A stretch of DNA of 64,000 nt from Schmidtea nova. Taxonomy: Eukaryota. The stretch's first letter is position 1. Each line of letters starts with the position of its first letter. Shown here piece after piece: positions 1,473 through 64,000 of the stretch. The stretch covers positions 151,652,001 through 151,716,000 of the forward strand of contig CM097883.1 of the NCBI GenBank assembly GCA_044892505.1. The letters run 5' to 3'. The notes beneath the pieces were generated by a model. That model had not been told where the DNA came from, did no database searches, and saw nothing but the letters and a program-made list of their open reading frames with translations. A program made the position numbers and the translations under genes.

Positions 1473-1502
1473 GATTAAAAGTTTTGTGTATATTTATTTC
1501 GT

Positions 1503-1664: not shown

Positions 1665-1685
1665 TATTATTTCATTTATTTGTTT

Positions 1686-2309: not shown

Positions 2310-2380
2310 TTTTATTTAATTAATTAATTATTTTAATATTGTTTAATTTAATATTGTTTATATTTATTCAATTTATAAAA

Positions 2381-2863: not shown

Positions 2864-2898
2864 ATAAATTGTTATTTTACAAATCCATATTTTTGAAA

Positions 2899-27300: not shown

Positions 27301-27382
27301 CAAAACTCCATCATTCCAAACCAACAATTTTGAAGCTTTCATAAGATCCAAACATCATTCGATAAGTTCATCAAAACCGCAA

Positions 27383-27970: not shown

Positions 27971-28340
27971 TCCAGATATTATCAGTTTCTATAGCAACAG
28001 TCAATCAGGTTTAGAATTACCGTATTTTGTAGGTAAACAATATGGAACTGGTTGGTTGAAAACGATAGGTAGATTTGCATTACGAATCCTTAGACGTATT
28101 GGAAATTTTGGTATGAAAACTGCCAATGACGTGTTAAATAATAATTCAAAGATTTTACCTGCACTAAAATCCAATGCCATTTCTGAAATTAAAGATTCAT
28201 TACCTGATGTGATTCATCAATTGCCAAAAGTAATTAATAAAGTGACTGATGTGTTTAACGAAAATAAAACTGAAAGTAAACAAAATGGCGGAATTCTTAA
28301 ACGTAAAAGAAATATGAAGAAACATATAACCAAAGAATGA
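27963..28340 (+). CDS. Polinton conserved core-like protein, 125 aa
   Basis: QYGTGW and QNGG motifs and a basic C-terminus; start overlaps the penton stop; lies between the penton and major capsid genes. Confidence 0.7.
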   Translation: MNNPDIISFYSNSQSGLELPYFVGKQYGTGWLKTIGRFALRILRRIGNFGMKTANDVLNNNSKILPALKSNAISEIKDSLPDVIHQLPKVINKVTDVFNENKTESKQNGGILKRKRNMKKHITKE

Positions 28341-28365
28341 AAGAATATGGAAAAATATTTGAAAA

Positions 28366-43300: not shown

Positions 43301-44047
43301 GAAAATGTGTTGTGCCGAGAGGCCGAGAATCCCGTCAGATCATTAGATCTTCGGGACAAACCTTATAGATTTTATCATTATGAGGGTTTATAATAATAAC
43401 ACAAGAATATAATCGTACCTTTTATTTCGATTCCAATTCGTGATTACAAGGTTTCACAAAATTACACTTGTCGCAAGTATGTTATCAGTTCGCAACTGAA
43501 AATGACACTTGGAAAAAAAGACTGACTTTGGCTGCTGCTTATATACTAATTTGTGTTGCCGGCCAGCCAATCAGAATCCAGCGTTCATGCAGATATTGTG
43601 TGCATTTTATTTTTAATGTTTTTCTTGGTGTACCTAATTCGATAAGTTGTTGTTTAATCATAATCGCCGCATCAGCACCTCACATGAAAATGTGTTGTGC
43701 CGAGAGGCCGAGAATCCCGTCAGATCATTAGATCTTCGGGACAAACCTTATAGATTTTATCATTATGAGGGTTTATAATAATAACACAAGAATATAATCG
43801 TACCTTTTATTTCGATTCCAATTCGTGATTACAAGGTTTCACAAAATTACACTTGTCGCAAGTATGTTATCAGTTCGCAACTGAAAATGACACTTGGAAA
43901 AAAAGACTGACTTTGGCTGCTGCTTATATACTAATTTGTGTTGCCGGCCAGCCAATCAGAATCCAGCGTTCATGCAGATATTGTGTGCATTTTATTTTTA
44001 ATGTTTTTCTTGGTGTACCTAATTCGATAAGTTGTTGTTTAATCATA
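43279..44047. repeat. Tandem duplication, 385-bp unit x2
   Basis: 43279-43663 repeated at 43664-44047; identical ORF starts at 43468 and 43853. Confidence 0.92.
43515..43571 (-). promoter_or_regulatory. Candidate Pol II core promoter (CCAAT element, TATATAAG, TCAGT initiator); duplicated at +385
   Basis: Minus strand GATTGG...TATATAAG...TCAGT; TATA-to-Inr spacing (~22 nt) is slightly short. Confidence 0.35.
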
Positions 44048-44281
44048 CGTGAATCTTTTGTTAATATTTGTTTTATTGTAGATTCTCGGTGATATCTGCC
44101 CACGCCTTGTCAAATTTTCAAGTTATTGGTATTCCGCATGGGTGAGTTTCTATTGTTATTGTCTATTTTTATTCATGCTTCATTACTTTCAGATTCTGTT
44201 GCACATTGCTGAATACTTAGTGATTAGTAATTTATTTTGTTGTCGTTTTTATGTTATTTATTATATTGATTTATTTTTCTT

Positions 44282-44932
44282 TTAGGTTATTGCTGATTTG
44301 CCTGGCCCAACAAATAATTCGCCTGTCATACTGTCGAAAGTATCATTGATAATCTTGAAATCATCCAAAGAAGCATGGGATCGACCAAATGTGTAGGCAT
44401 TTCCTTTGACATTAGTAAGAGTATCGAAATGATCAATTTCAGCAAAAAAGTCTTGATGAACCAATGGTTGACAAGCAGGATATTCAAATCGTCGACGCGA
44501 ATAAAATATCTGGTATTCGTGAAACCCTAAAAATTTGCCGAATTCCAAAATCGATTTCAAAGCATTTAATAGAAATGTTGTGCCGCAAATTTTTGGGATT
44601 ATTCTCCTTTGCGATACGAACAAACTGCTTTCACTCAACACATAAGAATCCATATGATCATCGGACATTTGTGAAATGATCTGGCAATCGACTTTGTCAA
44701 GTATTTCAACGACGGAGCTTTTAGGAATGGATCGCAAATCGCACTCATTGTCGTCAGAATTAAACCATATTTCTAATAACTTTTCACTGCCTTCAAAGAA
44801 ATATTCCTGTGGAATATGATTGGTTTGATTTTCAAAATCTTTCATAGTTTGGAAATGAATACAACTTAAAAAACCAAATTCAAAACAATGTTTTCCAGAT
44901 AAATCCATTCGAAACTCCCACAAAGAATTCAA
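44282..44932 (-). pseudogene. AMD1: S-adenosylmethionine decarboxylase proenzyme, N-terminal ~half; 3' end replaced by unrelated sequence
   Basis: FFEGSEKLLEIWF, YVLSESSLFVS (pyruvoyl self-cleavage site), KICGTT, FYSRRRF.YP..QP..H. Homology ends at NAYTFGR. Confidence 0.85.
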
Positions 44933-45260
44933 ATAAAGCCAAATTTAAATAGTTCCCCAAAAATTCCGAAAACAATAGCTCGAATAAACAACTCAAAATA
45001 ATAAATAAATTCCAGAATTAAATTCAATGAAATCCAATTATTATACTGCACACACGGACGCGAAAGACGACTCTCAGCAGTGCGCGCACATACGCGTAAT
45101 AACACGAGTAATCTAAACCTTGTGTTATCTCAAAAATCACCCGTGCACACAGACGCGATACAAAAACTTCAACATGAAATGCGAACGCAGACGCATACAA
45201 AAAACACAAATCCAAAACGCGCATACAGACGCGAATAAATAGCCAAAGTTTGCTACAAGC

Positions 45261-48193
45261 TAGTGTTGGGAATACTGGGATCCCGGTATTTGGAACAATA
45301 TATAGTTGCCGAAATACCGGTATTGAAAAAGTCGAATACCGGTATTTCGGTATTCGAAATAAGTTCACCATTCGAAATAATTTCACCAATATAATGTTTT
45401 TTATGGTTTTTTACTACAAAAAAATATTTGCATTATTATTTCTTAATGCGAAAAAACAGCAATCTAGTATTATATGAAAAGTTTAAAAGTTCAATTGTTT
45501 AAAAATATTCGTATTATTGTTTCTTAATGCGAAGAAACAGCAATCTAGTATTATATGAAAAGTTTAAAAGTTCAATTGTTTAAAAATATTCGTATTATTG
45601 TTTCTTAATGCAAAGAAACAGCAATCTAGTATTATATGAAAAATTTAAAAGTTTAGTTGTTCTTATAAATCGAAACAAAATCTATATTATAGATTATTTT
45701 TACGTACTACTATAATAGTTAAATTAAAATATTATTATATAAAATTCGAAACGGTAAGTAAAATATTTTCTTTTTAATCAGAATATGAATTATACATTTT
45801 ATTATCGTGTTTCGAACTTTTAGAAAATTTGTACTTTACACCGATATGAATATTCAAGATTTTGAGGAGCATTCCAAAGCAAATGATAAAAATTCACCAT
45901 GGTTTCATTTTCTAAGAGAAAAAGCAGGACAGTGTGCTAAATGCAAATGGTGTAAGAGAATAATAAAAACACATGGAGGTTCTACAAGCGGTCTTCATAC
46001 CCATTTAAAAACAATTCATGAAATCAATTTATTGAAAAGAGATGTAGGTAGCACCACTGTTTTAGATTCTTCAGAATTTGTACAGAAATCAAAACCTTCT
46101 GTAACTATAAACAACTTTTTTAAAAGTGATAAAATGGATGACTCATTGCCAGCTATTTTAGCTAGGATGACTGCGTGTGATGGTTTATCGTTCAACATTA
46201 TCTGCACTTCATATGATATCAGAAAAGGCTTAACAGCCAGAGGCTTTTCTAACATACCAAAAGATCACAAAACAATTCAAAAAATGGTTTTGAATTACAG
46301 TCGAAATATACGAGATCAAGTAATTAAAGAATTATCGTGCAGAATTGCTAATGGAAACAGATTTTCTCTTACTTTCGATGAATGGACATCGGTAAGAAAT
46401 AGACGTTACATAAATATTAATGTCCACTCTGACAAAGAATTTTGGAATCTAGGATTGATTCGTGCTTTTGGAACAATTCCAGCAGAAAAATGTGTTGAGC
46501 TTGTGAATGATAGGTTAGGTGATTTCGAGCTTTCGATGAACAATATTGTAGGTATTACCACTGATGGCGCTGCAGTTATGACAAAGGTTGGCAGGTTAAT
46601 TGAAGCACATCAGCAGCTATGTTTAGCGCATGGAATTCAGTTGGCTGTTATCAGCGTACTCTACAAAAAACCTATTAATGAGGCTAGTCTGCATAATGAA
46701 GAAGATGCCAACGTTACATCTGTTCCCACACCCAGATTTGAAAGACAGCAGAATTCCACAGATGACGACGAATTAATTGATGAAGATTAGGGAAATGAAA
46801 ATGGTTTACTTATTATATCCACTGAAAATGATGATGATAATTCTTCTTTTCTGGTACATCAGCAAATGTTACCATTAATTAAAAAAGTTCGTAAAGTGGT
46901 AAAAATATTTCGAACTTCGCCTACAAAAAATGACAAAATCCTACAAAAATATATAAAAGAAGAGTTCGGGAAAGAATTGTCTCTGGTTTTAGACTCAAGA
47001 ACACGATGGAATAGTTTAGTGTCTATGATAGAACGTTTCATCAAATTAAAAAATTGCATCAAAAAGAGTCTAATAGATTAAAAATCACCTATTTTGTTTT
47101 CAGATGGCGAGTTTGAAATGTCACATATCCTTTCAGTTTTACTTCCCATTAAGCTTACAGTTGAAGCAATCTGCCGACAGGATGCAACTTGGTTATCTGC
47201 AGATGCTGCTATTCAATTTATGATGAAATCAATAACTGACCATCCATGTTCATTAGGTTATGAATTGAAAGCAGCTTTAAAAGTACGTATTCTTCAAAGA
47301 CGAACAGAAATTTCAAGTGTTTTGCAATATTTACATGATGCAAACTGCAATGAAAATCCAAGCGATGATGAATCCGATAAAGATTATGAATTATTTCCGA
47401 TCATTACCAAAGCTGCAATCGCAAAAGTTATTGTTCTACAGATACAACGTTTGGGTATGCCCAACTTGCATTATGAAGCTGCACCTGTAGCTACAACATC
47501 TACTTCATCCAACGTTTCAAATTCAGATACAAATATATTATTCAATGTCGATGATGATGAAGATGATCAAAGAAATGAAATATCTCTGACTTTACAAGAA
47601 AAGTTGGAGAGGGCAATATCAAAAAAAATTTGCACCAGATTACCTGAAAGTGGAATCGACCAAAACAAAAATGATCTCACACGCTCAATAAAAAAAGAAA
47701 TGTCATTTTTTGAGACAAATGGCATAAGAGGCAAATACTTAACTTTATTATATAATTATTTGCTAAGTATTCAACCGACCAGTGTAGAATCGGAGAGAGC
47801 TTTTTCGGCAGCTGGCTTAATCTGCACCAGAATTCGGTCAAGGTTGAGAGATAATTCGCTCAACAATCTATGTTTTCTCAGGTCTTATATCAACAACCAA
47901 CTACAGAAAAAGTAGAATCTTAAAATTTTATGTCTTCATCCTTTTCTTATAAATAATATATATAACTAACATTTTACTGAATTTTGTTTTTACATTTATC
48001 TAATTTTTATTCTTTAAATAAATAAATTTAGTTTTTTTTAATTGGCAAACAATTTTTTAATTAAATTTATTTATTCATTCGTATTATTATAGGAAAAATA
48101 ATAATACCGGTATTAATACCGGGATCCCGGGATTACAAAAATCCAATACCGAAATACCGGTATTGGATTTTTGGTCCGGTATTCCCAACTCTA
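45261..48193 (+). mobile_element. Full-length hAT transposon (BED finger + DDE + hATC), copy 1
   Basis: TIRs TAGTGTTGGGAATAC / rc TAGAGTTGGGAATAC, exact 8-bp TSD CTACAAGC, subterminal ATACCG motifs, and three 81-bp tandem repeats at ~45430-45670. Confidence 0.95.
45807..47915 (+). pseudogene. hAT transposase with two in-frame stops (46788 TAG, 47079 TAA)
   Basis: BED finger CAKCKWC...L.THL..IH; FSLTFDEWTS; ITTDGAA; CLAH; DSRTRWNS; IQPTSVESERAFSAAG. All three ORFs are in one frame. Confidence 0.92.
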
Positions 48194-49429
48194 CTACAAG
48201 CTAACTTTGGCTGAAACAATAATAATAATAAAATAATAATAATATTAATAATAATTTATGATTTTAATTTTATTATTATGGTAATAAATTTATGATTACT
48301 ACAAGAATAAATTTATTTCACGGGGAAATTCATGGAAAATTTAAAGATTATCCAATAAACAATTCTGCAAAAGTTAAATATTAAAAAATTAAATGAATCA
48401 TTTTCATGGAAAATATTCACATGCAGAATATTGCAACTGTGCCTTGCGATTTTCATATTATTTTTTTTATTTCTCGCTCTTAGGTGAATCGAGATTTATT
48501 GATTTTTTAACGTTAAACAAATCCCAGTTGCCGAGATATCCCGTTGACATTTGCAGGCTCATAGACACGCACAGATGCTCACACAGATACACTCACAAAC
48601 ACATTACACTAGGTCATGAATTCAAGGGTATCATCAGTGATTATCGCATTCACCGACTGCAATATAAAGAATTTCATCCATTCCTAATTGACATCTTGCC
48701 TTGAAAATCAGGTCAACTAGTAATCATCATACAACAACAAACCGACAGGGACGAGAAAAATATCGCGTTACTCGTCTCGATCTAATGATATTCTGTATAT
48801 TTATTGCAAAATCTGTCGATATGTCTACCAGTTATTATCTGCCAATGTCTACCGGTGCGTGTGCATCGATCGAGCCAGCACACAACTCGATTTTTAAAAA
48901 TTCAATTTCTGTTCAGGAAAAACAAACACTCTAGCGCCTATCTATTCTCAGTTTCCAAATCTCAGCAGCCATGGTTTGATTATTTTTTGTTGTTGTAGAT
49001 ATTTTGTTATAATTTCCCTTTTCCCAACCTACTCGACAGGCACCCAAAACCAAAGAAAACACCACTCTCAAAGCTAAAGTCAAAAGCAAATCCCCTGTTT
49101 CAATTGACAATTCTGTGTTCACCTAAAATCCTCAGAAAACGCCCAATCATTTCGATGCCGATGAAGATTTCGGTTCGAGCGATGAATAAGTAAAGGCAAG
49201 TTAAAAGATTCGATTATAATGGTAGTTTATGCTTTTGTTTTTGTATTCCGTTCATTTAATTGTAATTTTTTTCAGAGGTACCAGCAGAGGAGATTAAGAT
49301 TGATAATAAAATTGAACATTTCTCACTATTATTTATATTTCTTACAGCAAAAGCCCTATGGCATTTGACTTTGGAGCAATTCGATGCTGCTATCATTTTC
49401 TTCGTAAGTTTTAGTCAAAATAATAGTAA

Positions 49430-49433
49430 TATC

Positions 49434-49481
<48 letters not shown>

Positions 49482-49520
49482 CATAATAATAACAATAATG
49501 ATAATGATGATGATAATAAT
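49430..49520. repeat. (AAT)n microsatellite
   Basis: Long AAT run grading into GAT; one unit longer in the duplicate copy. Confidence 0.95.
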
Positions 49521-50029
49521 ATTAGATGGGTCAATACGCCCATGCGGTGATTACAGACTCCTGAACTCAGTCACGAAAGTCGACAAATATCCTCTGCCCA
49601 GAATAAGCGATATCTTAGATCAATTCGGGGGAAGCAAAGTATTTTCAACGATCGATTTAGAAAAGCCATATCACCAAATCCCAATTGAAGCAAAGGACAT
49701 CCCGAAAACCGCAATAATTACCCCTTTTGGATTATACGAATACCTCAAAATGCCCTTTGGACTGAGGAACACATCACAAACACATCACAGTTTTTTCTCT
49801 AGGAAGCTCAATAAAACTGAACAAAGATATTCAACATTTGACCGAGAACTATTAGCTGCCTATTTAGCTATCAAAAACTTCAAACATCACCTGGACGGCA
49901 GCACATTCGAATTACTAACCGATCACAAGCCATTGGTATATATAAATACTATGAAAGATCCATCTAATAGACAATGGAGATGGATCCAGTTTTTAAACGA
50001 ATTTGTGGTAAAAATAATTCACATTAAAG
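49520..50029 (+). pseudogene. Gypsy RT N-terminus fused in frame to an RNase H fragment, cut by a hAT-type end at 50030
   Basis: RPCGDYRLLN, YPLP, FSTIDL, MPFGLRN joined to FFSRKL...YSTFDRELLA...TDHKPL; YxDD segment absent; CAGTGGTTTCCAACC begins at 50030. Confidence 0.88.
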
Positions 50030-50756
50030 CAGTGGTTTCCAACCCGGGAGGCGCCAAAACTTTTGAGTAAAAAAATGATTTTCATACTATAATATCTACA
50101 AATAGATAAAACTTCATGTGGTGGGAGTTTTATTTTGTCCAACGGGCATGTCGGAGAGTGTGGGATGAAGAAATGATTGGATTGTTGCAGATTGAATAAT
50201 TATCATCTAGTCTTGTTGGAACATTCAGAGAAGCATTGGAATCTGATCGCTTTGGAAACTATAAACTCTCTTATGATCTTTATAACAGTTGATTTCCAAA
50301 GAATCAATCGATGAAAATGACGAAAATACACTAATTAAGGAAACTGTGTAGATGGGCAGAATTGACGAAGTTTTTCAATGGCATGATTGACGAAACATTG
50401 ATTTCAAAGAATCTTAAACTCAGAACTTTAATGTTTGATAAAGATATTGATGAAAGAAAAAACTATTTCAGACTTAGACGAATTGTTGGAAAAATTTTAA
50501 ATATCAATGTCTAATTATGAATTATTGAAATTAGTTTATTTTTTTCATTGTTAAAAAAAAGTACTTTTGGTAAATTACCTTTCAGTTATTTTTTTATGGA
50601 AAATTTGTAAATTATGATTTATTTTTTTAATTTGGTTTGTAAAAGGTTGTTTAAATATTCAAAAGGAAATTTTGTAAATTAGTTTTTCAAAATAATAAAG
50701 ATTTGTGAATTAACATTTAATTATTATTTATTTTAAATTAATTAATTTAAATTCAT

Positions 50757-53393
50757 TTGATGGAAAATTCGATATATTTTCGGGACGAAAACTGGCCAGG
50801 CGAATTTAACCTTTTGTCTCGCTTGGCAGAGATGGATAAATCGTTTTTGGAAATTAGCGGTAAGTTGAATTTTATTGTTAATTATTTAAATATCTCAAAT
50901 GAAAATTTAAATAGTAATTTTTTACAAAGTAATTCGGGATATTTTGATAAAAGTAAAAATAAATTTGCTAATGTAGATTCTGATAATAATATGTTTTCAT
51001 TTGATAACTATGAAGGTGATAACTATGTTGATGATTTTAAAATTCCTTATCCTAAAGTGTATAATCTTTGCAATAAGCATAATAAAAATGAAACTTTTAA
51101 TAAAACCTTCACAGAGACTAATCTATATCGAAATTTCAAAAACTCTGAATATAAGAATACTACGATTAAGAAATTAAATGAACACAATGTAGAGAAAAAT
51201 TTATTAGAAAATCAAAGCTTTGGAGGTCGATCTGATTCAGCTTTAGATCGAATTGTTTCTGTTTATGGTTCTTTGGAGTCCCCGGGCAGGGACATTCATG
51301 ATCTGAAAATAACAATTTTTAATAAAAATCAAAAAAATAAATCTAATTTACTTGATATTGAAAATTCTAATTTACTTGAAATGAAATCGAGTAAATTAAA
51401 CAATCAGAATTTTTATAATAATTCTAATGTTTCACATCAATCTGGTGAAACTGGAAATAACTTTGAAAAAGTAAAATTATTTGATAAAGAAAATTCTAAT
51501 TTGAATATAAACTTTAAAAATCAAAATAAATCAAATTCAAAATCTCGTTCTGGTTCCACTTATAGAAATAGTTACTATAATAAAGATAGTTATTCTAAAT
51601 TTAATGATAACAAACTTGAAATGAAATTTCCTAGATTATTAACCAAAAGGGAAAAAAATTCATTAACACAATTATTCCCAAAATATCTTTCTCTTTTAAA
51701 GTTAAAGGAATCAGTCAGAAAATCTGATTTAATTAATAATGATTTGTTAAATATAAAAAAAGTGGATAATCCATTGGAGATTGCAGGTTTTGAGAGTTTC
51801 TTTTATAGAAACCATAACATATGTGTGTTTTTAAATTTTGAACCTCTTAAAGTAAAGGCAGTTAATAATAAAGCACAAATACCCACCGTGAAAACATTTT
51901 TGATTGGATCGAACATCTTGATGGTTAATAAAAAGCAGACTAAATTCATTCCTGCCCCATCAATTATTAAACGATTCTTATGTTCCTTTTCGTCAAAACT
52001 TGCAAGGACAGTCTCTATTAAAAATCCAAAGGCCAAGGAAATACAAATAAATAATATTCTTTTTGAAATGAGACAACGAAAAGAACTCCCTGATTACCTT
52101 ATAAACTCAGAAATAAAATATGTTGCGGGTAACTTCATGATGTTGGATCTTCTTAGCGGTTCTGAATCGGAAGATACCAGTCCATACCAAACTGCTACTG
52201 AACTGTCCCGGTCACAATTAGTTAACCTATTTAAGTCACACCCTGAACTTGAGGAGCTATGTTTTATTGAGAACACATATGCTAATCCCCAAAATATAAA
52301 TAAATTAATTATGAAATTAAAACTAGAAAATAAATTTCCAGAGCAGATCTCATTTGTAGAGGGTAAATTTATTATTAGAAATTCAACAGCAAATGGAGTC
52401 AAAGTGCACGCAGTTGGTACATCTGATATAATGTTCAACTTAGGTTTGCTGAACTTTGTTGAGATGTCAAAAGAGGACAGTGTGTTTAGTTCTCTTCTTG
52501 ATGAACAGCCCTCATCTCAAAAGCTGGTTGATATCATTTTTTATTTAAATTATTTAAAATTAAAAGATTCCCTAAAATATAACTCAGAACCCAGCTTTGA
52601 TGTATACGTACTGAACTATCTCAGAAATTGCTTCTTAATGCATTCGATCACGACTATTGAAGAGTCTTATAATTTTGACGTTGACACTATTTACATCTGG
52701 GGTTCAGAGATGGTCAGTAAGCTTAACAGTTCTTCATACTATTTCACTAGTTGTCAAGAAAGACTTTTGAAACTAAAACAAGTGAATCTCTCTGAGGAGA
52801 TTGATAAAATTCATGACATCATCTCTCCCAAAACCATTTTAGAAATAAACAATTTCCTGGCAGTTGTCGATAATTCTCTACCTAAAAAGACAGACCAGAT
52901 GAAGGCCTTAGTAAACATAAGCAATAAAATCAATGAATTTCAATCCGAGTTGAGTAATAGTGATGTTGTTAAAGCAAAACGACTCTTGTTCTTTGTAATT
53001 AGAGACAAGAAAAACTTTCTTAAAGCCAACAGAGTTAACTTCCGACTTCCTCGACATTGTAGAAAGATTTGTACTTCGAGTATGAGTGTCTACATTACAA
53101 AGCTTCTTGAGGTTCTGCTTCCGTTCACAACAACAAGTAATTTTCAACCTGATACCCTAAATCTAGAGACTATCAACGAATCCATCGATAACATAGAAGA
53201 CGAAAATCCTTCTCCTATAGTTGATGAAGATGACATAGATAATTTAAGAAAGAATCAAGTAAAGAAGCGTAAACTAGCATGTGATATCGATGAAATTCAG
53301 TCATCTGCAATAGAGAGCAAAAGTAACGAGGAACCTGAGCTTCCTTTGAAATCTTTTAAATATGGTAAGGGAACGGGAACCGGAAATAAATGA
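50757..53393 (+). CDS. Retroelement ORF1 / N-terminal region, 878 aa, no recognised domain
   Basis: Long open frame (first ATG at 50760) with an Asn/Ser/Lys-rich N-terminus and an acidic C-terminus with KKRK. Ends at a TGA in frame with ORF2. Confidence 0.75.
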   Translation: MMENSIYFRDENWPGEFNLLSRLAEMDKSFLEISGKLNFIVNYLNISNENLNSNFLQSNSGYFDKSKNKFANVDSDNNMFSFDNYEGDNYVDDFKIPYPKVYNLCNKHNKNETFNKTFTETNLYRNFKNSEYKNTTIKKLNEHNVEKNLLENQSFGGRSDSALDRIVSVYGSLESPGRDIHDLKITIFNKNQKNKSNLLDIENSNLLEMKSSKLNNQNFYNNSNVSHQSGETGNNFEKVKLFDKENSNLNINFKNQNKSNSKSRSGSTYRNSYYNKDSYSKFNDNKLEMKFPRLLTKREKNSLTQLFPKYLSLLKLKESVRKSDLINNDLLNIKKVDNPLEIAGFESFFYRNHNICVFLNFEPLKVKAVNNKAQIPTVKTFLIGSNILMVNKKQTKFIPAPSIIKRFLCSFSSKLARTVSIKNPKAKEIQINNILFEMRQRKELPDYLINSEIKYVAGNFMMLDLLSGSESEDTSPYQTATELSRSQLVNLFKSHPELEELCFIENTYANPQNINKLIMKLKLENKFPEQISFVEGKFIIRNSTANGVKVHAVGTSDIMFNLGLLNFVEMSKEDSVFSSLLDEQPSSQKLVDIIFYLNYLKLKDSLKYNSEPSFDVYVLNYLRNCFLMHSITTIEESYNFDVDTIYIWGSEMVSKLNSSSYYFTSCQERLLKLKQVNLSEEIDKIHDIISPKTILEINNFLAVVDNSLPKKTDQMKALVNISNKINEFQSELSNSDVVKAKRLLFFVIRDKKNFLKANRVNFRLPRHCRKICTSSMSVYITKLLEVLLPFTTTSNFQPDTLNLETINESIDNIEDENPSPIVDEDDIDNLRKNQVKKRKLACDIDEIQSSAIESKSNEEPELPLKSFKYGKGTGTGNK

Positions 53394-53399
53394 AGGTGC

Positions 53400-56300
53400 G
53401 TGCCTGCATCCGTCTCAACATCTGCTCTAATCTCTAAAGAGACTGATGCAGACAGCACAAATGATGACAATTCTAAACTTTCAACAACACTGCGTGACCC
53501 TAAAATATGGTTTACTGATGATGATATAGATAATTACCTTGAACGTCACATCAGTAACCCAACATTTGCACCGATAAAATGCTTTCAAATTGAAATCCTA
53601 CTTGCAAATCTGTCTGAAGACATTTTCCCAATTCCGGAAAGAGTTTTCTCATCACAAATAATATTATGCCCCTTAAACATTAACCAGGCTCACTGGATCT
53701 TGTTTGTCTACTGTAAGGCATCACTAACGTCTTACTTTATAGATCCAATTTTTGAAAATCGTCATTCAATGGGCAATAAAGCAACAGCACTTAAAACCAA
53801 CATCGCTTTTAATCGATTATTTAACTTGAAAGCTGCGGTATTTTTCCATCCACATAAGAACTTTATCTATCAGGACAATGACTATGACTGTGGTCCTTAC
53901 ATCTGTGCATATGCTATGATGATAAGTGGAGAATGGCAGAGATTTCCTGATAACTTTATTGAAACTATCCGCATAAATGCCCACCAATTTAAACTTACCT
54001 TGCAAAACATAGGCCCAAAAACATCGGGGGGTGGTGCACTTAAAATAAAAAGCTACAAACAATATAAAAATGCAAGAAAGCAAATTACAATTACCGATAA
54101 AGAGCAGATATTTTTTCTCAAGAGAAATTCTTGTGTGTCTTCCTTAATTGCTGAATGGTTTAAAGACTGTAAAAATATCACGGTCCTGTCACCTGAACTG
54201 ACACTAAATGTCATATCACAGAACGATACATTTATTCGGGAAACTGTCTCGTTCAAACAATTTCTTGGGATTGACCATGTCATCAGCGTTATCCCAAATG
54301 AAACAAACTGGTGTTTATATCTTTATTCTACATCACATGGAACCAGCCATATTTTTAATAACCAGGAAAAGCTCATTTCTGAACGACTATTTGGTATCGG
54401 CGAAAACATGACTGACTACTTGAATAAGTTTTTTCTTTCATCCAAAGCTGTATTCAACTCTCATCACAACATAGAGCTCTTCCCTATGGTCTGCGATGAT
54501 CCACATCTCTTTGCCTCTATCTTCATTGAATTACTAGAGAAATTAATATTTGACAAACAGTCTTCATTTGCAAGCATCCGCGAGTCTCTTAATTTATATA
54601 AAATCAAACAGACAAATGAGATCTCTCGGAATATAAACGTATTAAACTCTAAAATTAATGATGAAGTCATAACAAAATATTTTAATAATTTAAATTTATC
54701 AAGTGATTTTCTATTATTAAATGCGACAATGTGCACAGCGATTCTGGATGATTGCATGCATCATTTAAATGAATATTTAAACTATGAGCATTTAATTAAG
54801 GCGCAAGTTATCTTTGCAATTGTTGCACCCCATAAATATCGGGAAATTTTATTCATCCTCGATTACCATTCAGATCAATACTACATCATCAACCCAACGA
54901 CTATGTTGGGAAATGAAAAATATGTCAAGATTTGTAAGAGTCTTAGAAACAAAATTAATGAAATGAAAGAAACACCTGGGCGTGTCTTAAATCTTTGTGA
55001 ATGTCCTCATGAAATTCGCGGTTCGGGACTTTTAAGTAAGATACTATTGTGCGCTTTCATACATAACTTCGCCAAAGATCTGCCCCTTGTAAATCTAAAT
55101 TTGCGTGAGATAGGTAACACAGTCAGCGCTCTGCTTCCCATTGTCAAAGAAAGAAATGAAATTGGAAGCTGGAGTAAAATTAAATTAAGTAAAAACAACG
55201 TAGAAAGCTTGAGTATCAAACAACGAAAGCTTAAAGCTGGTCAACTCTTAATTAAATGGGCGAATTTAAACATAAATCAAATCATTGATGCCATCAATGA
55301 ACAATTCCCTGATCGGCTAAAATCAACAAATAAACCATACTTGGGAACCAGAACGAGACCTTCTAAAATAAATAAATATAAACTTATCGATAAATTCCTT
55401 ACTGACATGAAATCAACAGTCAGCAAAGTCATCAACAATTTTGACACATCTGCTAGACCAGAATATCAAAATATTATCAAAAACTTTACTCATAAATCTC
55501 CTTTGCAAAGACACTGGCAAAGTCTTTTTACTTTTTGTAAACAATCACAAAAACCACTTTTTCTAGAATCTCTATTAAGTGATGAAGTAATGTATGAACT
55601 CAGGAGAGCTGACAACACTAGTCCTGGTATTGATGGCATACAATATCGAGACTTGTTGCGTCTGGATCCAGAGGGTAATATACTTACTTTCTTGTTTAAT
55701 AAGATTATTTTAGAAAAATCCATACCTGACAGTTGGAAGACTTACAAAACTCTTCTAACTCCTAAACCTGACAAAGAAAATAAATATGAGGATGTTTCGT
55801 CTTGGCGACCAATCGCCTTGCTTTCCGTCATTTATAAGGTTTTTGCTTCTTGTCTAGCTAGACGCCTCACACACTGGATAGACTTGAATAATCTTTTACA
55901 TGTCGGTCAAAAAGGTGGTTCTCAACATGATGGATGTGCTGAACACAATTCGATTCTGTCTGCCGCGCTTGAACACTCTAAATATAGCAGAAATTGTCCT
56001 CTTTCAATTGCTTGGCTGGACATAAAAGATGCTTTTGGTAGTGTTCCACATGATTACATGTGGTCCCTACTTCGATATATTGGAGTAGGTGAGGAATTTA
56101 CATCAATTCTGCAGATGCTTTACTCCAACACGAGTACCTTTTATAGTTGTGGTCCTATTTTGACGCCAAACATTCCAATTAGACAGGGTGTTAAACAAGG
56201 ATGTCCATTATCAATGATTCTGTTTTCTTTGGCGATTAACCCTGTTCTTGAAGCTGTATCCAGATCAGACTGTCAACCTTTTATGATTGGAGAATCGCCT

Positions 56301-57998
56301 GTTAAGATTCTTGCATACGCAGATGATATTGCTCTTGTTGCAAAATCTGTTGAAGACCTGCAGAAAATAACTGAAATAGCTGTTGCAACTGCTGCTGAAA
56401 TCGGGTTCTTATATCGTCCTGAAAAATGTGGATATCTCCAACTACCAAAAGTCCACATTGACAGCGAAATCTCTATCAATGGCGTCAAAATTAAGAAGTT
56501 GCTGTCTAATGAATTCTATCAGTACCTCGGTGTGCCTGTAGGTGAGGAAACTGATCAGAGTCCATATGACATTCTTAAAAAAGTAGTCGCCGACACTAAA
56601 AAACTTGCTGACTCTGACTTACTTGGCTGGCAAAAGCTAAAGGCTTATAAGATATTTATTCATTCTCGGTTAATCTTTCCCTTTAGAACTCGAGAGATAA
56701 AAACCAGTGCTCTTTCTATATCTCGAGGCAACAGTAACCTTTCTGTCAACATTACCAGTCAATTAAGATATCATCTTCGGAAAATACTACTTTTGCCTCA
56801 TTATTCTGAAATAAGCTACTTTTACACTTCAACTGAAAACGGAGGAGCAAACTGTGTTGATTTGTTAGACGAATATCATACACAGACAATCACACACTTT
56901 TTCCGATTATTAACTGCCAAATGTGACTTTGCGAGAAAGATTAACATCGATTCTTTATCCTTTGTCACCGGTCCACGACTTGGGATATTGGAGCCCACAC
57001 TTCAAGAAAGTCTTGACTGGCTCAATGGCACAGAGTGTAAATCCCGCCATTCCGGGAGAAAAACTCGATTTCAAAGAGTCAGAACTTCAATTGCTTACTT
57101 TGAAAAAATCCATAAAATAAATATTACCTTCACTGTCACTAATCGCGAACCCTCACTATATATAACAACAGAAGCGCGAGGTACATGCATTTTGACTTCT
57201 GATTTACGTCATACGACATCTAAAGTCTTGCATATTGCACTCTGTAACTCTTATATGTCGAAATGGGAGAAGAGCTGCGTCTCAAGCATATTTGCTTCAG
57301 CAATCAAACTTTCACCGATTGTTAACAAGGCCATCTATCGTAGTGAATTGTCTGAGTTTGCTTGGAATTTTATTCATCGAGCTCGCACTAATACTCTCTC
57401 TATTCTTGCGAAGCCTTACAATCGAGATGAAAAAAGACTTTGTCGTCGGTGTCATCTTGCAGATGAGACGATGTCACACGCTATTCAATCGTGTAAAGTC
57501 CATCTTACTCTTGGTTCTGAGCGGCACGACGACTGTCTAAAGATTATTGCTACTCAACTTCAGAGAATTCCGAATTTGATTGTTGTTATTGATCATGCCT
57601 GTTCACTTGTTCCGAACTCTAAAGAACGAGTTGACTTGATGATAACAGACTTGTCAAAAAAGAAAATCTTTCTAATTGACTTGAAATGTCCGACAGACTC
57701 TATTGCTGGTTTTGAACAAGTTGACTTACTAAACTTGGCGAAATATGATTCGTTGAAAAACGAGATACAAGCTGTCAAGCCAGACTTTAGAGTTGAACTT
57801 GATACTTGCATTATTGGTGCTTTGGGATCTTTTCCTTCGAAAACTTCCGATATTCTTTTGAAAGTAGGAATTAAAAGAAATCAAATACAGGGATTGCTAA
57901 AACAATGTGCTATAAGTAATATAACACATTCTGCCAGACGGTGGTATTTCCACAAGAATGGCGTTTTACCAAACCTGGATAGTGATCACCTCTCATAA
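53400..57998 (+). CDS. Ulp1-like protease(s) + reverse transcriptase + CCHC + RLE endonuclease polyprotein, 1532 aa
   Basis: AHW/IDP/QDNDYDCG; SPGIDG, WRPIAL, LDIKDAFGSV, GVKQGCPLS, YADD, YQYLG; CRRC...ETMSHAIQSC; RHD, RVDL...IDLKCP. Confidence 0.95.
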   Translation: MPASVSTSALISKETDADSTNDDNSKLSTTLRDPKIWFTDDDIDNYLERHISNPTFAPIKCFQIEILLANLSEDIFPIPERVFSSQIILCPLNINQAHWILFVYCKASLTSYFIDPIFENRHSMGNKATALKTNIAFNRLFNLKAAVFFHPHKNFIYQDNDYDCGPYICAYAMMISGEWQRFPDNFIETIRINAHQFKLTLQNIGPKTSGGGALKIKSYKQYKNARKQITITDKEQIFFLKRNSCVSSLIAEWFKDCKNITVLSPELTLNVISQNDTFIRETVSFKQFLGIDHVISVIPNETNWCLYLYSTSHGTSHIFNNQEKLISERLFGIGENMTDYLNKFFLSSKAVFNSHHNIELFPMVCDDPHLFASIFIELLEKLIFDKQSSFASIRESLNLYKIKQTNEISRNINVLNSKINDEVITKYFNNLNLSSDFLLLNATMCTAILDDCMHHLNEYLNYEHLIKAQVIFAIVAPHKYREILFILDYHSDQYYIINPTTMLGNEKYVKICKSLRNKINEMKETPGRVLNLCECPHEIRGSGLLSKILLCAFIHNFAKDLPLVNLNLREIGNTVSALLPIVKERNEIGSWSKIKLSKNNVESLSIKQRKLKAGQLLIKWANLNINQIIDAINEQFPDRLKSTNKPYLGTRTRPSKINKYKLIDKFLTDMKSTVSKVINNFDTSARPEYQNIIKNFTHKSPLQRHWQSLFTFCKQSQKPLFLESLLSDEVMYELRRADNTSPGIDGIQYRDLLRLDPEGNILTFLFNKIILEKSIPDSWKTYKTLLTPKPDKENKYEDVSSWRPIALLSVIYKVFASCLARRLTHWIDLNNLLHVGQKGGSQHDGCAEHNSILSAALEHSKYSRNCPLSIAWLDIKDAFGSVPHDYMWSLLRYIGVGEEFTSILQMLYSNTSTFYSCGPILTPNIPIRQGVKQGCPLSMILFSLAINPVLEAVSRSDCQPFMIGESPVKILAYADDIALVAKSVEDLQKITEIAVATAAEIGFLYRPEKCGYLQLPKVHIDSEISINGVKIKKLLSNEFYQYLGVPVGEETDQSPYDILKKVVADTKKLADSDLLGWQKLKAYKIFIHSRLIFPFRTREIKTSALSISRGNSNLSVNITSQLRYHLRKILLLPHYSEISYFYTSTENGGANCVDLLDEYHTQTITHFFRLLTAKCDFARKINIDSLSFVTGPRLGILEPTLQESLDWLNGTECKSRHSGRKTRFQRVRTSIAYFEKIHKINITFTVTNREPSLYITTEARGTCILTSDLRHTTSKVLHIALCNSYMSKWEKSCVSSIFASAIKLSPIVNKAIYRSELSEFAWNFIHRARTNTLSILAKPYNRDEKRLCRRCHLADETMSHAIQSCKVHLTLGSERHDDCLKIIATQLQRIPNLIVVIDHACSLVPNSKERVDLMITDLSKKKIFLIDLKCPTDSIAGFEQVDLLNLAKYDSLKNEIQAVKPDFRVELDTCIIGALGSFPSKTSDILLKVGIKRNQIQGLLKQCAISNITHSARRWYFHKNGVLPNLDSDHLS

Positions 57999-58711
57999 GG
58001 GATTGAATGAGGGTATGTATTGTCAGATTCTCTTTAGCTATATTTTATTCAATGTTAAGTGTTATATGTATAGAAGTAGTATTTCTATTTTTTCTAGATA
58101 GTCAATCCCAAAGTAACATTGATAATTGCTTATATTAAATATATATATATTCTTGTAATTTTTAAAGAGATCAGATAAGTGGACAAATCGCAGACAAATA
58201 GAAATGATATTTTATAGATCTGCTTTGAGGTTCAAAATTGATGTCCGAAGAGAGAATTTCTGCAGCCCTGGTCAACTGAGGTTGGAAATGACTCAAACAT
58301 GCCAACTGTCATGTTCACCAAACTAAAGATCAACTGCAAAGCCAGATGGAAAATCTGAAGACAGATTCACACACCAATGCCGAGGACGAATTAGACTGTT
58401 GCAAATGACAATTGAGTTGCAATGATCCACAAACTTATAATATTATATGTGATTCTTTCCAACTCTTTGACAGTTGTAAACAGTCTGATTGGCGTGCTCC
58501 ATGTTGAGAACAGTCCTAATGTACAAATTTCAGATTTTATTTATAATAAAAGTATTTAGTAATCTAAACCTTGTGTTATCTCAAAAATCACCCGTGCACA
58601 CAGACGCGATACAAAAACTTCAACATGAAATGCGAACGCAGACGCATACAAAAAACACAAATCCAAAACGCGCATACAGACGCGAATAAATAGCCAAAGT
58701 TTGCTACAAGC

Positions 58712-61644
58712 TAGTGTTGGGAATACTGGGATCCCGGTATTTGGAACAATATATAGTTGCCGAAATACCGGTATTGAAAAAGTCGAATACCGGTATTTCG
58801 GTATTCGAAATAAGTTCACCATTCGAAATAATTTCACCAATATAATGTTTTTTATGGTTTTTTACTACAAAAAAATATTTGCATTATTATTTCTTAATGC
58901 GAAAAAACAGCAATCTAGTATTATATGAAAAGTTTAAAAGTTCAATTGTTTAAAAATATTCGTATTATTGTTTCTTAATGCGAAGAAACAGCAATCTAGT
59001 ATTATATGAAAAGTTTAAAAGTTCAATTGTTTAAAAATATTCGTATTATTGTTTCTTAATGCAAAGAAACAGCAATCTAGTATTATATGAAAAATTTAAA
59101 AGTTTAGTTGTTCTTATAAATCGAAACAAAATCTATATTATAGATTATTTTTACGTACTACTATAATAGTTAAATTAAAATATTATTATATAAAATTCGA
59201 AACGGTAAGTAAAATATTTTCTTTTTAATCAGAATATGAATTATACATTTTATTATCGTGTTTCGAACTTTTAGAAAATTTGTACTTTACACCGATATGA
59301 ATATTCAAGATTTTGAGGAGCATTCCAAAGCAAATGATAAAAATTCACCATGGTTTCATTTTCTAAGAGAAAAAGCAGGACAGTGTGCTAAATGCAAATG
59401 GTGTAAGAGAATAATAAAAACACATGGAGGTTCTACAAGCGGTCTTCATACCCATTTAAAAACAATTCATGAAATCAATTTATTGAAAAGAGATGTAGGT
59501 AGCACCACTGTTTTAGATTCTTCAGAATTTGTACAGAAATCAAAACCTTCTGTAACTATAAACAACTTTTTTAAAAGTGATAAAATGGATGACTCATTGC
59601 CAGCTATTTTAGCTAGGATGACTGCGTGTGATGGTTTATCGTTCAACATTATCTGCACTTCATATGATATCAGAAAAGGCTTAACAGCCAGAGGCTTTTC
59701 TAACATACCAAAAGATCACAAAACAATTCAAAAAATGGTTTTGAATTACAGTCGAAATATACGAGATCAAGTAATTAAAGAATTATCGTGCAGAATTGCT
59801 AATGGAAACAGATTTTCTCTTACTTTCGATGAATGGACATCGGTAAGAAATAGACGTTACATAAATATTAATGTCCACTCTGACAAAGAATTTTGGAATC
59901 TAGGATTGATTCGTGCTTTTGGAACAATTCCAGCAGAAAAATGTGTTGAGCTTGTGAATGATAGGTTAGGTGATTTCGAGCTTTCGATGAACAATATTGT
60001 AGGTATTACCACTGATGGCGCTGCAGTTATGACAAAGGTTGGCAGGTTAATTGAAGCACATCAGCAGCTATGTTTAGCGCATGGAATTCAGTTGGCTGTT
60101 ATCAGCGTACTCTACAAAAAACCTATTAATGAGGCTAGTCTGCATAATGAAGAAGATGCCAACGTTACATCTGTTCCCACACCCAGATTTGAAAGACAGC
60201 AGAATTCCACAGATGACGACGAATTAATTGATGAAGATTAGGGAAATGAAAATGGTTTACTTATTATATCCACTGAAAATGATGATGATAATTCTTCTTT
60301 TCTGGTACATCAGCAAATGTTACCATTAATTAAAAAAGTTCGTAAAGTGGTAAAAATATTTCGAACTTCGCCTACAAAAAATGACAAAATCCTACAAAAA
60401 TATATAAAAGAAGAGTTCGGGAAAGAATTGTCTCTGGTTTTAGACTCAAGAACACGATGGAATAGTTTAGTGTCTATGATAGAACGTTTCATCAAATTAA
60501 AAAATTGCATCAAAAAGAGTCTAATAGATTAAAAATCACCTATTTTGTTTTCAGATGGCGAGTTTGAAATGTCACATATCCTTTCAGTTTTACTTCCCAT
60601 TAAGCTTACAGTTGAAGCAATCTGCCGACAGGATGCAACTTGGTTATCTGCAGATGCTGCTATTCAATTTATGATGAAATCAATAACTGACCATCCATGT
60701 TCATTAGGTTATGAATTGAAAGCAGCTTTAAAAGTACGTATTCTTCAAAGACGAACAGAAATTTCAAGTGTTTTGCAATATTTACATGATGCAAACTGCA
60801 ATGAAAATCCAAGCGATGATGAATCCGATAAAGATTATGAATTATTTCCGATCATTACCAAAGCTGCAATCGCAAAAGTTATTGTTCTACAGATACAACG
60901 TTTGGGTATGCCCAACTTGCATTATGAAGCTGCACCTGTAGCTACAACATCTACTTCATCCAACGTTTCAAATTCAGATACAAATATATTATTCAATGTC
61001 GATGATGATGAAGATGATCAAAGAAATGAAATATCTCTGACTTTACAAGAAAAGTTGGAGAGGGCAATATCAAAAAAAATTTGCACCAGATTACCTGAAA
61101 GTGGAATCGACCAAAACAAAAATGATCTCACACGCTCAATAAAAAAAGAAATGTCATTTTTTGAGACAAATGGCATAAGAGGCAAATACTTAACTTTATT
61201 ATATAATTATTTGCTAAGTATTCAACCGACCAGTGTAGAATCGGAGAGAGCTTTTTCGGCAGCTGGCTTAATCTGCACCAGAATTCGGTCAAGGTTGAGA
61301 GATAATTCGCTCAACAATCTATGTTTTCTCAGGTCTTATATCAACAACCAACTACAGAAAAAGTAGAATCTTAAAATTTTATGTCTTCATCCTTTTCTTA
61401 TAAATAATATATATAACTAACATTTTACTGAATTTTGTTTTTACATTTATCTAATTTTTATTCTTTAAATAAATAAATTTAGTTTTTTTTAATTGCCAAA
61501 CAATTTTTTAATTAAATTTATTTATTCATTCGTATTATTATAGGAAAAATAATAATACCGGTATTAATACCGGGATCCCGGGATTACAAAAATCCAATAC
61601 CGAAATACCGGTATTGGATTTTTGGTCCGGTATTCCCAACTCTA
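58712..61644 (+). mobile_element. hAT transposon, copy 2 (same TSD CTACAAGC, same two stops)
   Basis: Identical TIRs, TSD and ORFs 59258-61366. Confidence 0.95.
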
Positions 61645-62884
61645 CTACAAGCTAACTTTGGCTGAAACAATAATAATAATAAAATAATAATAATATTAAT
61701 AATAATTTATGATTTTAATTTTATTATTATGGTAATAAATTTATGATTACTACAAGAATAAATTTATTTCACGGGGAAATTCATGGAAAATTTAAAGATT
61801 ATCCAATAAACAATTCTGCAAAAGTTAAATATTAAAAAATTAAATGAATCATTTTCATGGAAAATATTCACATGCAGAATATTGCAACTGTGCCTTGCGA
61901 TTTTCATATTATTTTTTTTATTTCTCGCTCTTAGGTGAATCGAGATTTATTGATTTTTTAACGTTAAACAAATCCCAGTTGCCGAGATATCCCGTTGACA
62001 TTTGCAGGCTCATAGACACGCACAGATGCTCACACAGATACACTCACAAACACATTACACTAGGTCATGAATTCAAGGGTATCATCAGTGATTATCGCAT
62101 TCACCGACTGCAATATAAAGAATTTCATCCATTCCTAATTGACATCTTGCCTTGAAAATCAGGTCAACTAGTAATCATCATACAACAACAAACCGACAGG
62201 GACGAGAAAAATATCGCGTTACTCGTCTCGATCTAATGATATTCTGTATATTTATTGCAAAATCTGTCGATATGTCTACCAGTTATTATCTGCCAATGTC
62301 TACCGGTGCGTGTGCATCGATCGAGCCAGCACACAACTCGATTTTTAAAAATTCAATTTCTGTTCAGGAAAAACAAACACTCTAGCGCCTATCTATTCTC
62401 AGTTTCCAAATCTCAGCAGCCATGGTTTGATTATTTTTTGTTGTTGTAGATATTTTGTTATAATTTCCCTTTTCCCAACCTACTCGACAGGCACCCAAAA
62501 CCAAAGAAAACACCACTCTCAAAGCTAAAGTCAAAAGCAAATCCCCTGTTTCAATTGACAATTCTGTGTTCACCTAAAATCCTCAGAAAACGCCCAATCA
62601 TTTCGATGCCGATGAAGATTTCGGTTCGAGCGATGAATAAGTAAAGGCAAGTTAAAAGATTCGATTATAATGGTAGTTTATGCTTTTGTTTTTGTATTCC
62701 GTTCATTTAATTGTAATTTTTTTCAGAGGTACCAGCAGAGGAGATTAAGATTGATAATAAAATTGAACATTTCTCACTATTATTTATATTTCTTACAGCA
62801 AAAGCCCTATGGCATTTGACTTTGGAGCAATTCGATGCTGCTATCATTTTCTTCGTAAGTTTTAGTCAAAATAATAGTAATATC

Positions 62885-62935
<51 letters not shown>

Positions 62936-62973
62936 CATAATAATAACAATAATGATAATGATGATGATAATAA

Positions 62974-63483
62974 TATTAGATGGGTCAATACGCCCATGCG
63001 GTGATTACAGACTCCTGAACTCAGTCACGAAAGTCGACAAATATCCTCTGCCCAGAATAAGCGATATCTTAGATCAATTCGGGGGAAGCAAAGTATTTTC
63101 AACGATCGATTTAGAAAAGCCATATCACCAAATCCCAATTGAAGCAAAGGACATCCCGAAAACCGCAATAATTACCCCTTTTGGATTATACGAATACCTC
63201 AAAATGCCCTTTGGACTGAGGAACACATCACAAACACATCACAGTTTTTTCTCTAGGAAGCTCAATAAAACTGAACAAAGATATTCAACATTTGACCGAG
63301 AACTATTAGCTGCCTATTTAGCTATCAAAAACTTCAAACATCACCTGGACGGCAGCACATTCGAATTACTAACCGATCACAAGCCATTGGTATATATAAA
63401 TACTATGAAAGATCCATCTAATAGACAATGGAGATGGATCCAGTTTTTAAACGAATTTGTGGTAAAAATAATTCACATTAAAG
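62974..63483 (+). pseudogene. Gypsy RT/RNase H fusion fragment, copy 2
   Basis: Identical translation to the 49498-50070 ORF. Confidence 0.88.
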
Positions 63484-64000
63484 CAGTGGTTTCCAACCCG
63501 GGAGGCGCCAAAACTTTTGAGTAAAAAAATGATTTTCATACTATAATATCTACAAATAGATAAAACTTCATGTGGTGGGAGTTTTATTTTGTCCAACGGG
63601 CATGTCGGAGAGTGTGGGATGAAGAAATGATTGGATTGTTGCAGATTGAATAATTATCATCTAGTCTTGTTGGAACATTCAGAGAAGCATTGGAATCTGA
63701 TCGCTTTGGAAACTATAAACTCTCTTATGATCTTTATAACAGTTGATTTCCAAAGAATCAATCGATGAAAATGACGAAAATACACTAATTAAGGAAACTG
63801 TGTAGATGGGCAGAATTGACGAAGTTTTTCAATGGCATGATTGACGAAACATTGATTTCAAAGAATCTTAAACTCAGAACTTTAATGTTTGATAAAGATA
63901 TTGATGAAAGAAAAAACTATTTCAGACTTAGACGAATTGTTGGAAAAATTTTAAATATCAATGTCTAATTATGAATTATTGAAATTAGTTTATTTTTTTC

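Follow-up and report, generated by a model that had tools for sequence, protein, structure and literature searches.

Background

How the second open reading frame (ORF) of non-LTR retrotransposons is translated has long been an open question. The reviewed cases, SART1 and L1, are both explained by reinitiation (PMC5972666, PMC2881922), and SART1 also depends on a structure 3' of its ORF1 stop (PMC5972666, PMC10275272, PMC2881922). In other systems, readthrough of a stop codon is stimulated by a conserved 3' stem and by adenines at positions -1 and -2 (PMC3159437), a purine at +4 favours termination, and UGAAGA and UGAAGU occur at the gag-pro junctions of some retroviruses, without experimental verification (PMC13517186). 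The junction of the Candida albicans element Tca2, taken alone, gave no readthrough in yeast (PMC2194720). We found no case of a LINE-type element with programmed readthrough of a stop in the searchable literature.

Among elements with a restriction-like endonuclease (RLE), R5 of planaria has two ORFs and an orphan ORF1; it is not known to have been described with a protease or with a readthrough signal. R5 is assigned to the NeSL clade (PMC4640811).

A two-ORF element with a single in-frame stop

The element lies on the forward strand of a 64,000-nucleotide stretch of Schmidtea nova DNA (the window), to which all coordinates refer. From ATG 50760 to TAA 57998 the sequence reads directly as 2413 codons in one frame with a lone internal stop, TGA 53391–53393 (AAT AAA TGA AGG TGC GTG CCT), as the initial annotation had reported. 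ORF1 (50760–53393; 877 aa, the N-terminal third Asn-rich) terminates at this TGA, and ORF2 (53394–57998) comprises 1534 codons counted from the stop. The coordinates also agree with the earlier statement that the first in-frame ATG 3' of the stop, at 53769, lies past two catalytic residues of the ORF2 protease, His 53691 and Asp 53742. An AUG at 53390 that overlaps the stop was rejected as the ORF2 start, being in the -1 frame and opening just 15 codons. A variant genetic code was also discarded, since the two ORFs contain 20 TGG codons and no second TGA, so that TGA is not reassigned here; selenocysteine recoding was rejected, a SECIS match being absent from 44000–64000.

ORF1 matched no Pfam family (0) and contains no known domain, protein searches and the Atlas returned no homologue, and its single-sequence fold was unusable (pLDDT 32). 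ORF2 opens with a Ulp1/C48 cysteine protease (53496–53999; Pfam PF02902, E 2e-05; PDB Ulp1/SENP) in which the His and Asp, together with Gln ~53871 and Cys ~53889, are intact; the Cys, residue 166 of P0001, is invariant across alignment A5. The low-confidence linker 3' of the protease (model residues 204–226, pLDDT <50) holds a Gly-Gly-Gly (54030–54038), present in six of the seven full-length A5 proteins, that is a candidate self-cleavage site. Two extra Ulp1-like domains without the catalytic His follow (54102–55139), recognized by secondary structure and by hhalign (probabilities of 94% between the first and second domains, 94% between the second and third, and 50% between the first and third). 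Downstream are the reverse transcriptase (RT; 55764–56534, YADD; PF00078, E 2.5e-24), which is matched best in the PDB by R2 proteins (E 7.5e-87), and a CCHC knuckle with a restriction-like endonuclease motif (57441–57686), the second stretch of which aligns with the R2 C-terminus. The probable 3' UTR (57999–58140) has a closing hairpin and a short TA run; the exact 3' end and a target-site duplication (>9 nt) were not found near the element.

By these sequence features, a non-LTR-type RT with YADD and a C-terminal CCHC knuckle with restriction-like endonuclease, the element is an R2-group (RLE) non-LTR retrotransposon of NeSL-like anatomy. Placement in the NeSL clade would agree with the domain order, a Ulp1-like protease 5' of the RT being a feature of some of its members. 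The depth of near-identical contigs rises from ~24–40 at the 5' end to 130–200 towards the 3' end, contig depth not being equivalent to copy number. Beside this one insertion no U2, tRNA or other credible Rfam RNA was found, and 44000–64000 contains no spliced-leader or U2 Rfam match at E<=1, a search that divergent spliced leaders may escape.

Conservation of the junction within the organism

Conservation at the junction was computed directly from same-organism contigs of four public runs (one study, two samples; none on record as RNA). No change at 53391–53393 is present among the variants listed (40 of 905 rows), and a sense codon in other copies, the observation that the initial annotation had singled out as refuting its reading, is thus not seen among them. 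A near-identical contig (X3 record 18, depth 98.5) covers the stop with six differences, five of which are placed elsewhere. Contigs of diverged subfamilies resume matching at 53384, 7 nt 5' of the stop, where an A-rich context leads into the UGA (53384–53393); loose ends 5' of 53384 occur in three contigs of X2, two of X3 and three of X4, and depth is 592–786 in the junction bin versus 118–190 in the preceding bin. Among the ORF2 differences listed, 7 of 12 are synonymous versus an expected fraction of 0.21–0.28.

These data bear on the suggestion that this copy of what is otherwise a single-ORF element recently gained its stop by mutation. A random single-base change in the two ORFs creates a stop in ~4.9% of cases, and a few dozen sites distinguish the copy from the read contigs, so that one stop was plausible beforehand; the variants listed are moreover 40 of 905, and one of the spanning contig's six differences is unplaced. 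A private change is nevertheless expected at ~100% of depth, as at 53327 and 53684, and the stop is not among the variants listed; in addition, no fused protein was found, and the ORF2 boundary is common to seven relatives. A recent mutation is strongly disfavoured by these observations and is, in our estimation, very unlikely.

The same contigs speak to a small intron that would skip the stop, either from GT 53365 to AG 53439 or 53451 (in-frame lengths of 75 or 87 nt) or, combined with AUG 53390, as a 46-nt intron at 53396–53441. Donor-like and acceptor-like sites occur in the needed phases with a branch-like CTAAT, and spliceosomal introns exist in the host, but GT is absent from the 30 nt 5' of 53384 in the diverged subfamilies, no such joint is among the joints listed (15 of 38), and in five of seven relatives no codon with AG at its end can specify the amino acid found where the acceptor would lie. 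Proteins of LINEs usually copy the RNA that encodes them, so that an intron required for ORF2 would vanish from new copies. We regard splicing as very improbable.

The ORF2 boundary in distant relatives and a stem-loop 3' of the stop

In seven relatives (28–50% protein identity) the called ORF2 begins at the codon equivalent to GTG 53400, a shared boundary computed directly from the proteins; three further relatives (the P0018 cluster, P0028 and P0062) have later called starts. No ORF1–ORF2 fusion protein occurs among 14 + 54 matches. A metagenome scan returned nine loci, all distant Ulp1-like matches and none matching ORF2 beyond the protease domain, and no relatives were found in viral contigs or prokaryote genomes; three bacterial pattern matches, which lack homology, were set aside as chance. 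What is said here of the stop, the stem and the start codon (ATG or GTG) of the distant relatives is inferred from protein boundaries and amino acids.

Folding of the RNA downstream of the stop, which the initial annotation had proposed, reveals in this copy a stem beginning 10 nt past the UGA, a new observation for this element. The core stem-loop (53404–53451) has arms at 53404–53416 and 53439–53451 that form 12 pairs with one C-U mismatch around a 22-nt loop, with pair probabilities of 0.99–1.00 in all three folding contexts. The 10-nt spacer (53394–53403), which holds the in-frame GTG 53400, pairs partially with 53453–53458 in two alternative registers. Taken alone, the stem is moderately unusual (z -2.5); in a sliding-window fold scan the hairpin ranks 11th of 359 windows by z-score and 4th by energy, and since the z-score scan fails to single it out, its case rests on conservation.

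The stem arms encode PAS[V/D] and [T/S][D/G]A[D/E], the sole conserved residues at the ORF2 start, and the loop residues between them vary among relatives; both arms are seen in 7 of the 14 distinct proteins bearing the protease start motif. The amino-acid swaps of relatives on the arms look compensatory: 46 of 49 inferable core cells are able to pair (three are not) versus a permutation mean of 42.4, with a fraction of 0.004 of 5040 permutations reaching 46, in a test that ignores relatedness and for which the P0020 register was picked after the fact. The stem lies within 6–12 nt 3' of the stop and appears conserved, its covariation being read from amino acids only. The arm-encoded residues are predicted to be disordered (pLDDT 26–33) and remain at the ORF start even though the distance to the protease doubles in P0017, which points to constraint on the RNA rather than on the protein.

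Conservation alone is silent on which step the stem serves. ORF2 could be expressed by internal entry or from a shorter transcript, or the hairpin could act in another step such as protein-RNA binding, with the stop bypassed in an unrecognised way, for which Tca2 offers a precedent (PMC2194720). The conserved block is tied to the stop, starting 7 nt upstream of it, and a shorter transcript would leave ORF1 out of new insertions; we consider such routes improbable.

Proposed decoding of the stop

Retention of the stop, and the seeming retention of the hairpin in distant relatives, make readthrough probable. Our preferred reading, which we hold with some confidence but well short of certainty, is that of an intact multicopy two-ORF RLE non-LTR retrotransposon in which programmed UGA readthrough yields an ORF1-protease-RT fusion. 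The majority of ribosomes would terminate at the UGA and release the ORF1 protein; the stem 10 nt downstream would meet the mRNA entry channel, and a minority of ribosomes would decode the UGA to give an ORF1-protease-RT-endonuclease fusion, from which the Ulp1-type protease, probably cleaving the Gly-Gly-Gly linker, would free the RT-endonuclease portion. The absence of the classic UGA-C context, noted at the outset, weighs less than was then stated, a conserved 3' stem and adenines at -1 and -2 being known stimulators (PMC3159437). A purine occupies +4 and counts against readthrough.

The shared boundary at GTG 53400 also suits a different course of events, in which ribosomes terminate at the stop codon and, 6 nt further on, begin anew at GUG 53400 (in relatives, AUG or GUG), aided by downstream structure as in SART1, so that ORF2 is made as a separate protein. 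A start-type codon occupies exactly this position in all seven relatives with both arms, and reinitiation is the route of both reviewed non-LTR cases. SART1 requires downstream structure, and in caliciviruses reinitiation can proceed at non-AUG codons and in poor context (PMC5972666); L1 ORF2 initiation can be AUG-independent (PMC5009743). The GUG itself has a poor initiation context and sits at the base of the stem. A ribosome covers 15–17 nt (PMC13517186), so that one holding the GUG in its P site would enclose the whole 5' arm, and the stem would thus hinder a restart there. One of the two folds pairs the GUG with the Ser-Thr codons, and this pairing alone accounts for the conserved NTG; the initial M of the relatives is not evidence of AUG, as gene callers print M for any start, and the later called starts in the P0018 cluster, P0028 and P0062 also count against it. 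We judge reinitiation unlikely, though it is the main rival to readthrough. Of the three options that the initial annotation had left open, programmed bypass has thus gained and nonsense mutation has lost, and it is by geometry only that readthrough is preferred over reinitiation at GUG.

Significance and comparison with known systems

Readthrough, if true, would be a new route to the copying enzyme for this class of elements. The conserved stop and the 50-nt hairpin form a compact cassette that would act in readthrough or non-AUG reinitiation, either of which would be new for RLE elements. Annotation pipelines will take such elements, which are probably intact, for dead ones. More tentatively, and at somewhat less than even chances, we propose an undescribed RLE lineage that converged on the gammaretrovirus plan. 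Here a gag-like ORF1 would be followed by a UGA that is read through under the stimulus of RNA structure, and then by a protease that frees the RT-endonuclease by cleaving the fusion at a di-glycine linker; the lineage would use a captured SUMO-protease fold in three tandem copies.

The closest anatomy is that of the NeSL clade (NeSL families, Utopia-1_TSP), in which a Ulp1-like cysteine protease precedes the RT, followed by a zinc knuckle and the RLE (PMC4640811). Unlike Utopia, generally encoded as one protein, this element has two ORFs with a conserved in-frame stop between them and three tandem Ulp1-fold domains; unlike NeSL and Utopia proper, this insertion adjoins no U2, tRNA or other Rfam RNA. 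With SART1 and L1 it shares a bicistronic non-LTR RNA (PMC5972666, PMC10275272, PMC2881922), but those elements are APE-type, whereas this one is RLE, with its ORFs in frame and no usable AUG; neither the overlapping UAAUG of SART1, in another frame, nor the 63-nt spacer of L1 occurs here. Tca2 likewise carries an in-frame UGA between gag and pol, with a structure predicted 3' of it (PMC2194720), but is an LTR retrotransposon. The arrangement of a stop, a 6–12 nt spacer, a stem with a variable loop and adenines at -1 and -2 is that of the alphavirus, gammaretrovirus and SEPN1 cassettes, although here the stop context is UGA-AGG instead of UGA-CUA/CGG or UAG-G, the structure is a stem-loop in which a conserved pseudoknot was not seen, and a SECIS match is absent from 44000–64000; gammaretroviruses, as here, place the protease directly 3' of the stop (PMC3159437, PMC13517186).

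Results

The reading frame described in the initial annotation was reproduced in the window sequence, as were the sequence context and coordinates around the TGA at 53391-53393: 2413 codons run in one frame from the ATG at 50760 to the TAA ending at 57998, with this TGA as the sole break. Since a codon count across ORF1 and ORF2 finds TGG 20 times and no further TGA, the TGA is a genuine stop in the window DNA. The first in-frame ATG after it lies, as had also been claimed, at 53769, and because this is beyond the protease His (53691) and Asp (53742), a start there is incompatible with an active protease.

Behind the stop, ORF2 encodes a C48/Ulp1 protease domain (E 2e-05) and a reverse transcriptase (RT) domain (E 2.5e-24), and it also carries a CCHC knuckle and a motif of the restriction-like endonuclease type. 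When seven relatives are combined into one profile and compared with solved structures, R2 proteins come out on top (E 7.5e-87), and Ulp1/SENP proteases are matched as well. Profile comparisons, together with an AlphaFold prediction for residues 1-600 (pLDDT 80), indicate three Ulp1-like domains in tandem. The catalytic His is retained in the first alone; the two catalytically dead repeats (54102-55139) lie downstream of the active protease, and one relative, P0021, has one of them rather than both. CE-clan proteases cleave after di-glycine, which makes a Gly-Gly-Gly linker past the active domain, found in six of seven full-length proteins, a candidate self-cleavage site. Domain and homologue searches detected neither a domain nor a relative for ORF1. 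An inverted repeat that begins immediately past the ORF2 stop closes the probable 3' UTR (57999-58110).

The window is AT-rich, transposon-rich eukaryotic sequence containing genes with introns. The element is flanked on both sides by copies of a duplicated block, 5.4 kb or more in length (45107-50546 and 58558-64000; 99.93% identity, 13,451 nt apart), with remnants of a hAT transposase (zf-BED, dimerisation domain) and of an LTR-type RT/RNase H; since the second block copy extends beyond the window end, the retroelement may itself recur there. An uninterrupted S-adenosylmethionine decarboxylase-like frame (44282-44944, minus strand; PF01536, E 4.6e-47), whose match spans no more than the profile's first half, is perhaps a captured gene fragment. 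Maverick/Polinton-like remnants (8-3287 and 27296-29402), several of whose frames are broken, include an integrase with chromodomain, an A32-type ATPase, an adenovirus mu-like peptide and a TBP-like frame. A protein phosphatase 1-like gene (17600-25111, minus strand; several exons, GT-AG introns) is interrupted by repeats, and a long foldback assembled from short subrepeats, whose arms measure about 500 nt, occupies 22233-23916.

Other copies of the element were sought in four sequencing runs (one study, two samples, type not on record) that contain 83-85% of its sampled words, and their contigs were aligned onto 50550-58550. Among the 40 variants listed of 905, each of which reaches a 100% share in one or more of the runs, there are changes at 53327, 53495 and 53684 and none at 53391-53393; a change unique to the window would have a share of about 100% and would therefore appear among them. 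The stop is spanned by one contig (52379-53525, depth 98.5) with six differences, five of them placed at other listed sites. In three of the four runs, two or three contigs begin to match at 53384 below dissimilar sequence, whose last 30 letters, read by hand, contain no stop in the frame of ORF1 (IKKPKR[K/T]TKK), with three of the four differences among these stretches synonymous. The junction bin has a summed contig depth of 592-786, versus 118-190 in the preceding bin, and is surpassed only by the RT and endonuclease-region bins. Given these match starts and this depth, the alignments indicate, in their extent rather than in letters at the TGA, that diverged subfamilies retain a short junction block of at least 85% nucleotide identity, with similarity lost directly upstream. 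Removal of the stop as part of a small intron was weighed in view of the donor and acceptor sites present in frame, but the donor is lost in subfamilies and no such joint occurs among the 15 of 38 contig joints listed, making splicing highly improbable.

Within the ORFs, 12 of 26 listed differences are synonymous, a count that leaves out eight rows at 53210-53247, all of one diverged contig; for ORF2 the figure is 7 of 12 against an expected 0.21-0.28 (binomial p 0.005-0.02). This synonymous excess is consistent with purifying selection on ORF2 behind the stop.

Protein searches yielded 14 matches (843-2685 aa), or 54 without a length limit; full-length family members measure 1344-1540 aa, and none from either search is an ORF1-ORF2 fusion. 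The protease start motif occurs in 14 distinct proteins (P0018/70/71 counted as one). Seven of these (P0003, P0004, P0017, P0020, P0025, P0030, P0048), at about 28-50% identity, start exactly at the codon equivalent to GTG 53400, where M is gene-caller output for any start codon and ATG and GTG are indistinguishable; they carry a P-A-S-like motif followed downstream by a D-A-D-S-T-like motif. Three others start a few codons later with the second motif only, and four have neither. At two metagenome loci (L001, 2149-3018; L002, 5668-6579), both lacking an RT match to the retroelement family, a long ORF lies upstream in a different frame and its end is overlapped by a separate Ulp1-like frame.

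Folding the RNA downstream of the stop, a check proposed in the initial annotation, revealed a stem: in each of three contexts, 53404-53416 pairs with 53439-53451 at a probability of 0.99-1.00, and the extension towards the stop folds in two registers. By itself the hairpin's stability is moderately unusual (z -2.5; 5 of 200 shuffles equally stable). Its arms encode exactly the two conserved peptide motifs, with arm residues identical to the window in 3-5 of six relatives and loop residues in 0-2. Pairing in relatives was deduced from protein, with only those codon positions that the residue fixes taken into account. The best register is that of the window in six of seven relatives, and likewise in the seventh with a loop 12 nt shorter. 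Core cells able to pair number 46 of 49 (three broken), against 42.4 +/- 1.1 when the 3' arms are exchanged between relatives (fraction 0.004 of 5040 permutations), and over all nine pairs 55 of 63 against 48.6 (0.008), fractions that are indicative only, since relatedness is ignored and the seven relatives were chosen for visible similarity. Double changes preserve pairing (Ala to Thr with Ala to Val; Ser to Pro with Asp to Gly), as does Val to Asp with Thr to Ser provided the Ser codon is TCN. The region is predicted to be disordered, and in P0017 the motif still sits at the beginning of the ORF despite 37 extra residues before the protease, which favours a constraint acting on RNA more than on protein.

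An AUG overlapping the stop (AUGA) begins a 15-codon reading frame, shifted to -1 (53390-53437), that terminates within the hairpin loop; a ribosome near it would be held by the stem.

Discussion

The stop and hairpin junction is real and appears to be conserved, and the stop is very probably bypassed by a programmed route of one kind or another. Readthrough is the more likely route; the ribosome would decode UGA as the stem meets the entry channel. The core stem begins 10 nt past UGA. According to PMC13517186, the channel holds the 11-12 nt that follow the A site; the same source places UGAAGA and UGAAGU, without experimental verification, at gag-pro junctions of some retroviruses. Ribosomes might instead restart at GUG 53400 after termination, which we consider unlikely. 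In favour of such a restart, published accounts (PMC5972666, PMC10275272, PMC2881922, PMC5009743) describe a downstream structure required by SART1, poor codons tolerated in calicivirus reinitiation, and L1 ORF2 as possibly initiating without its own AUG. The start-type codon present in seven relatives would suit reinitiation but is also compatible with pairing with the Ser-Thr codons. Against a restart, the base at -3 of GUG 53400 is a pyrimidine and that at +4 is C, and the codon would enter the P site only once the stem was unwound.

R5 has two ORFs. RLE elements are stated in PMC5678591 to have a single ORF. Full-text searches of the open literature turned up no account of a non-LTR element that uses stop-codon readthrough, weak evidence given that most subscription papers and Repbase reports lie outside it, nor of a NeSL-like family with this ORF1-TGA-ORF2 junction, again weak evidence of absence. 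In Tca2 (PMC2194720), UGA occurs together with structure, a caution that the pair is no proof of readthrough. In its anatomy the element resembles NeSL elements (PMC4640811), and it may belong to that clade. Readthrough stimulators described in PMC3159437, and matched at this junction, include adenines at -1/-2 as well as a stem on the 3' side whose loop varies, and the SEPN1 element treated there, with its 6-nt spacer and 16-bp stem, resembles one of the junction's two folds. The type of recoding signal is already known; its setting is new.
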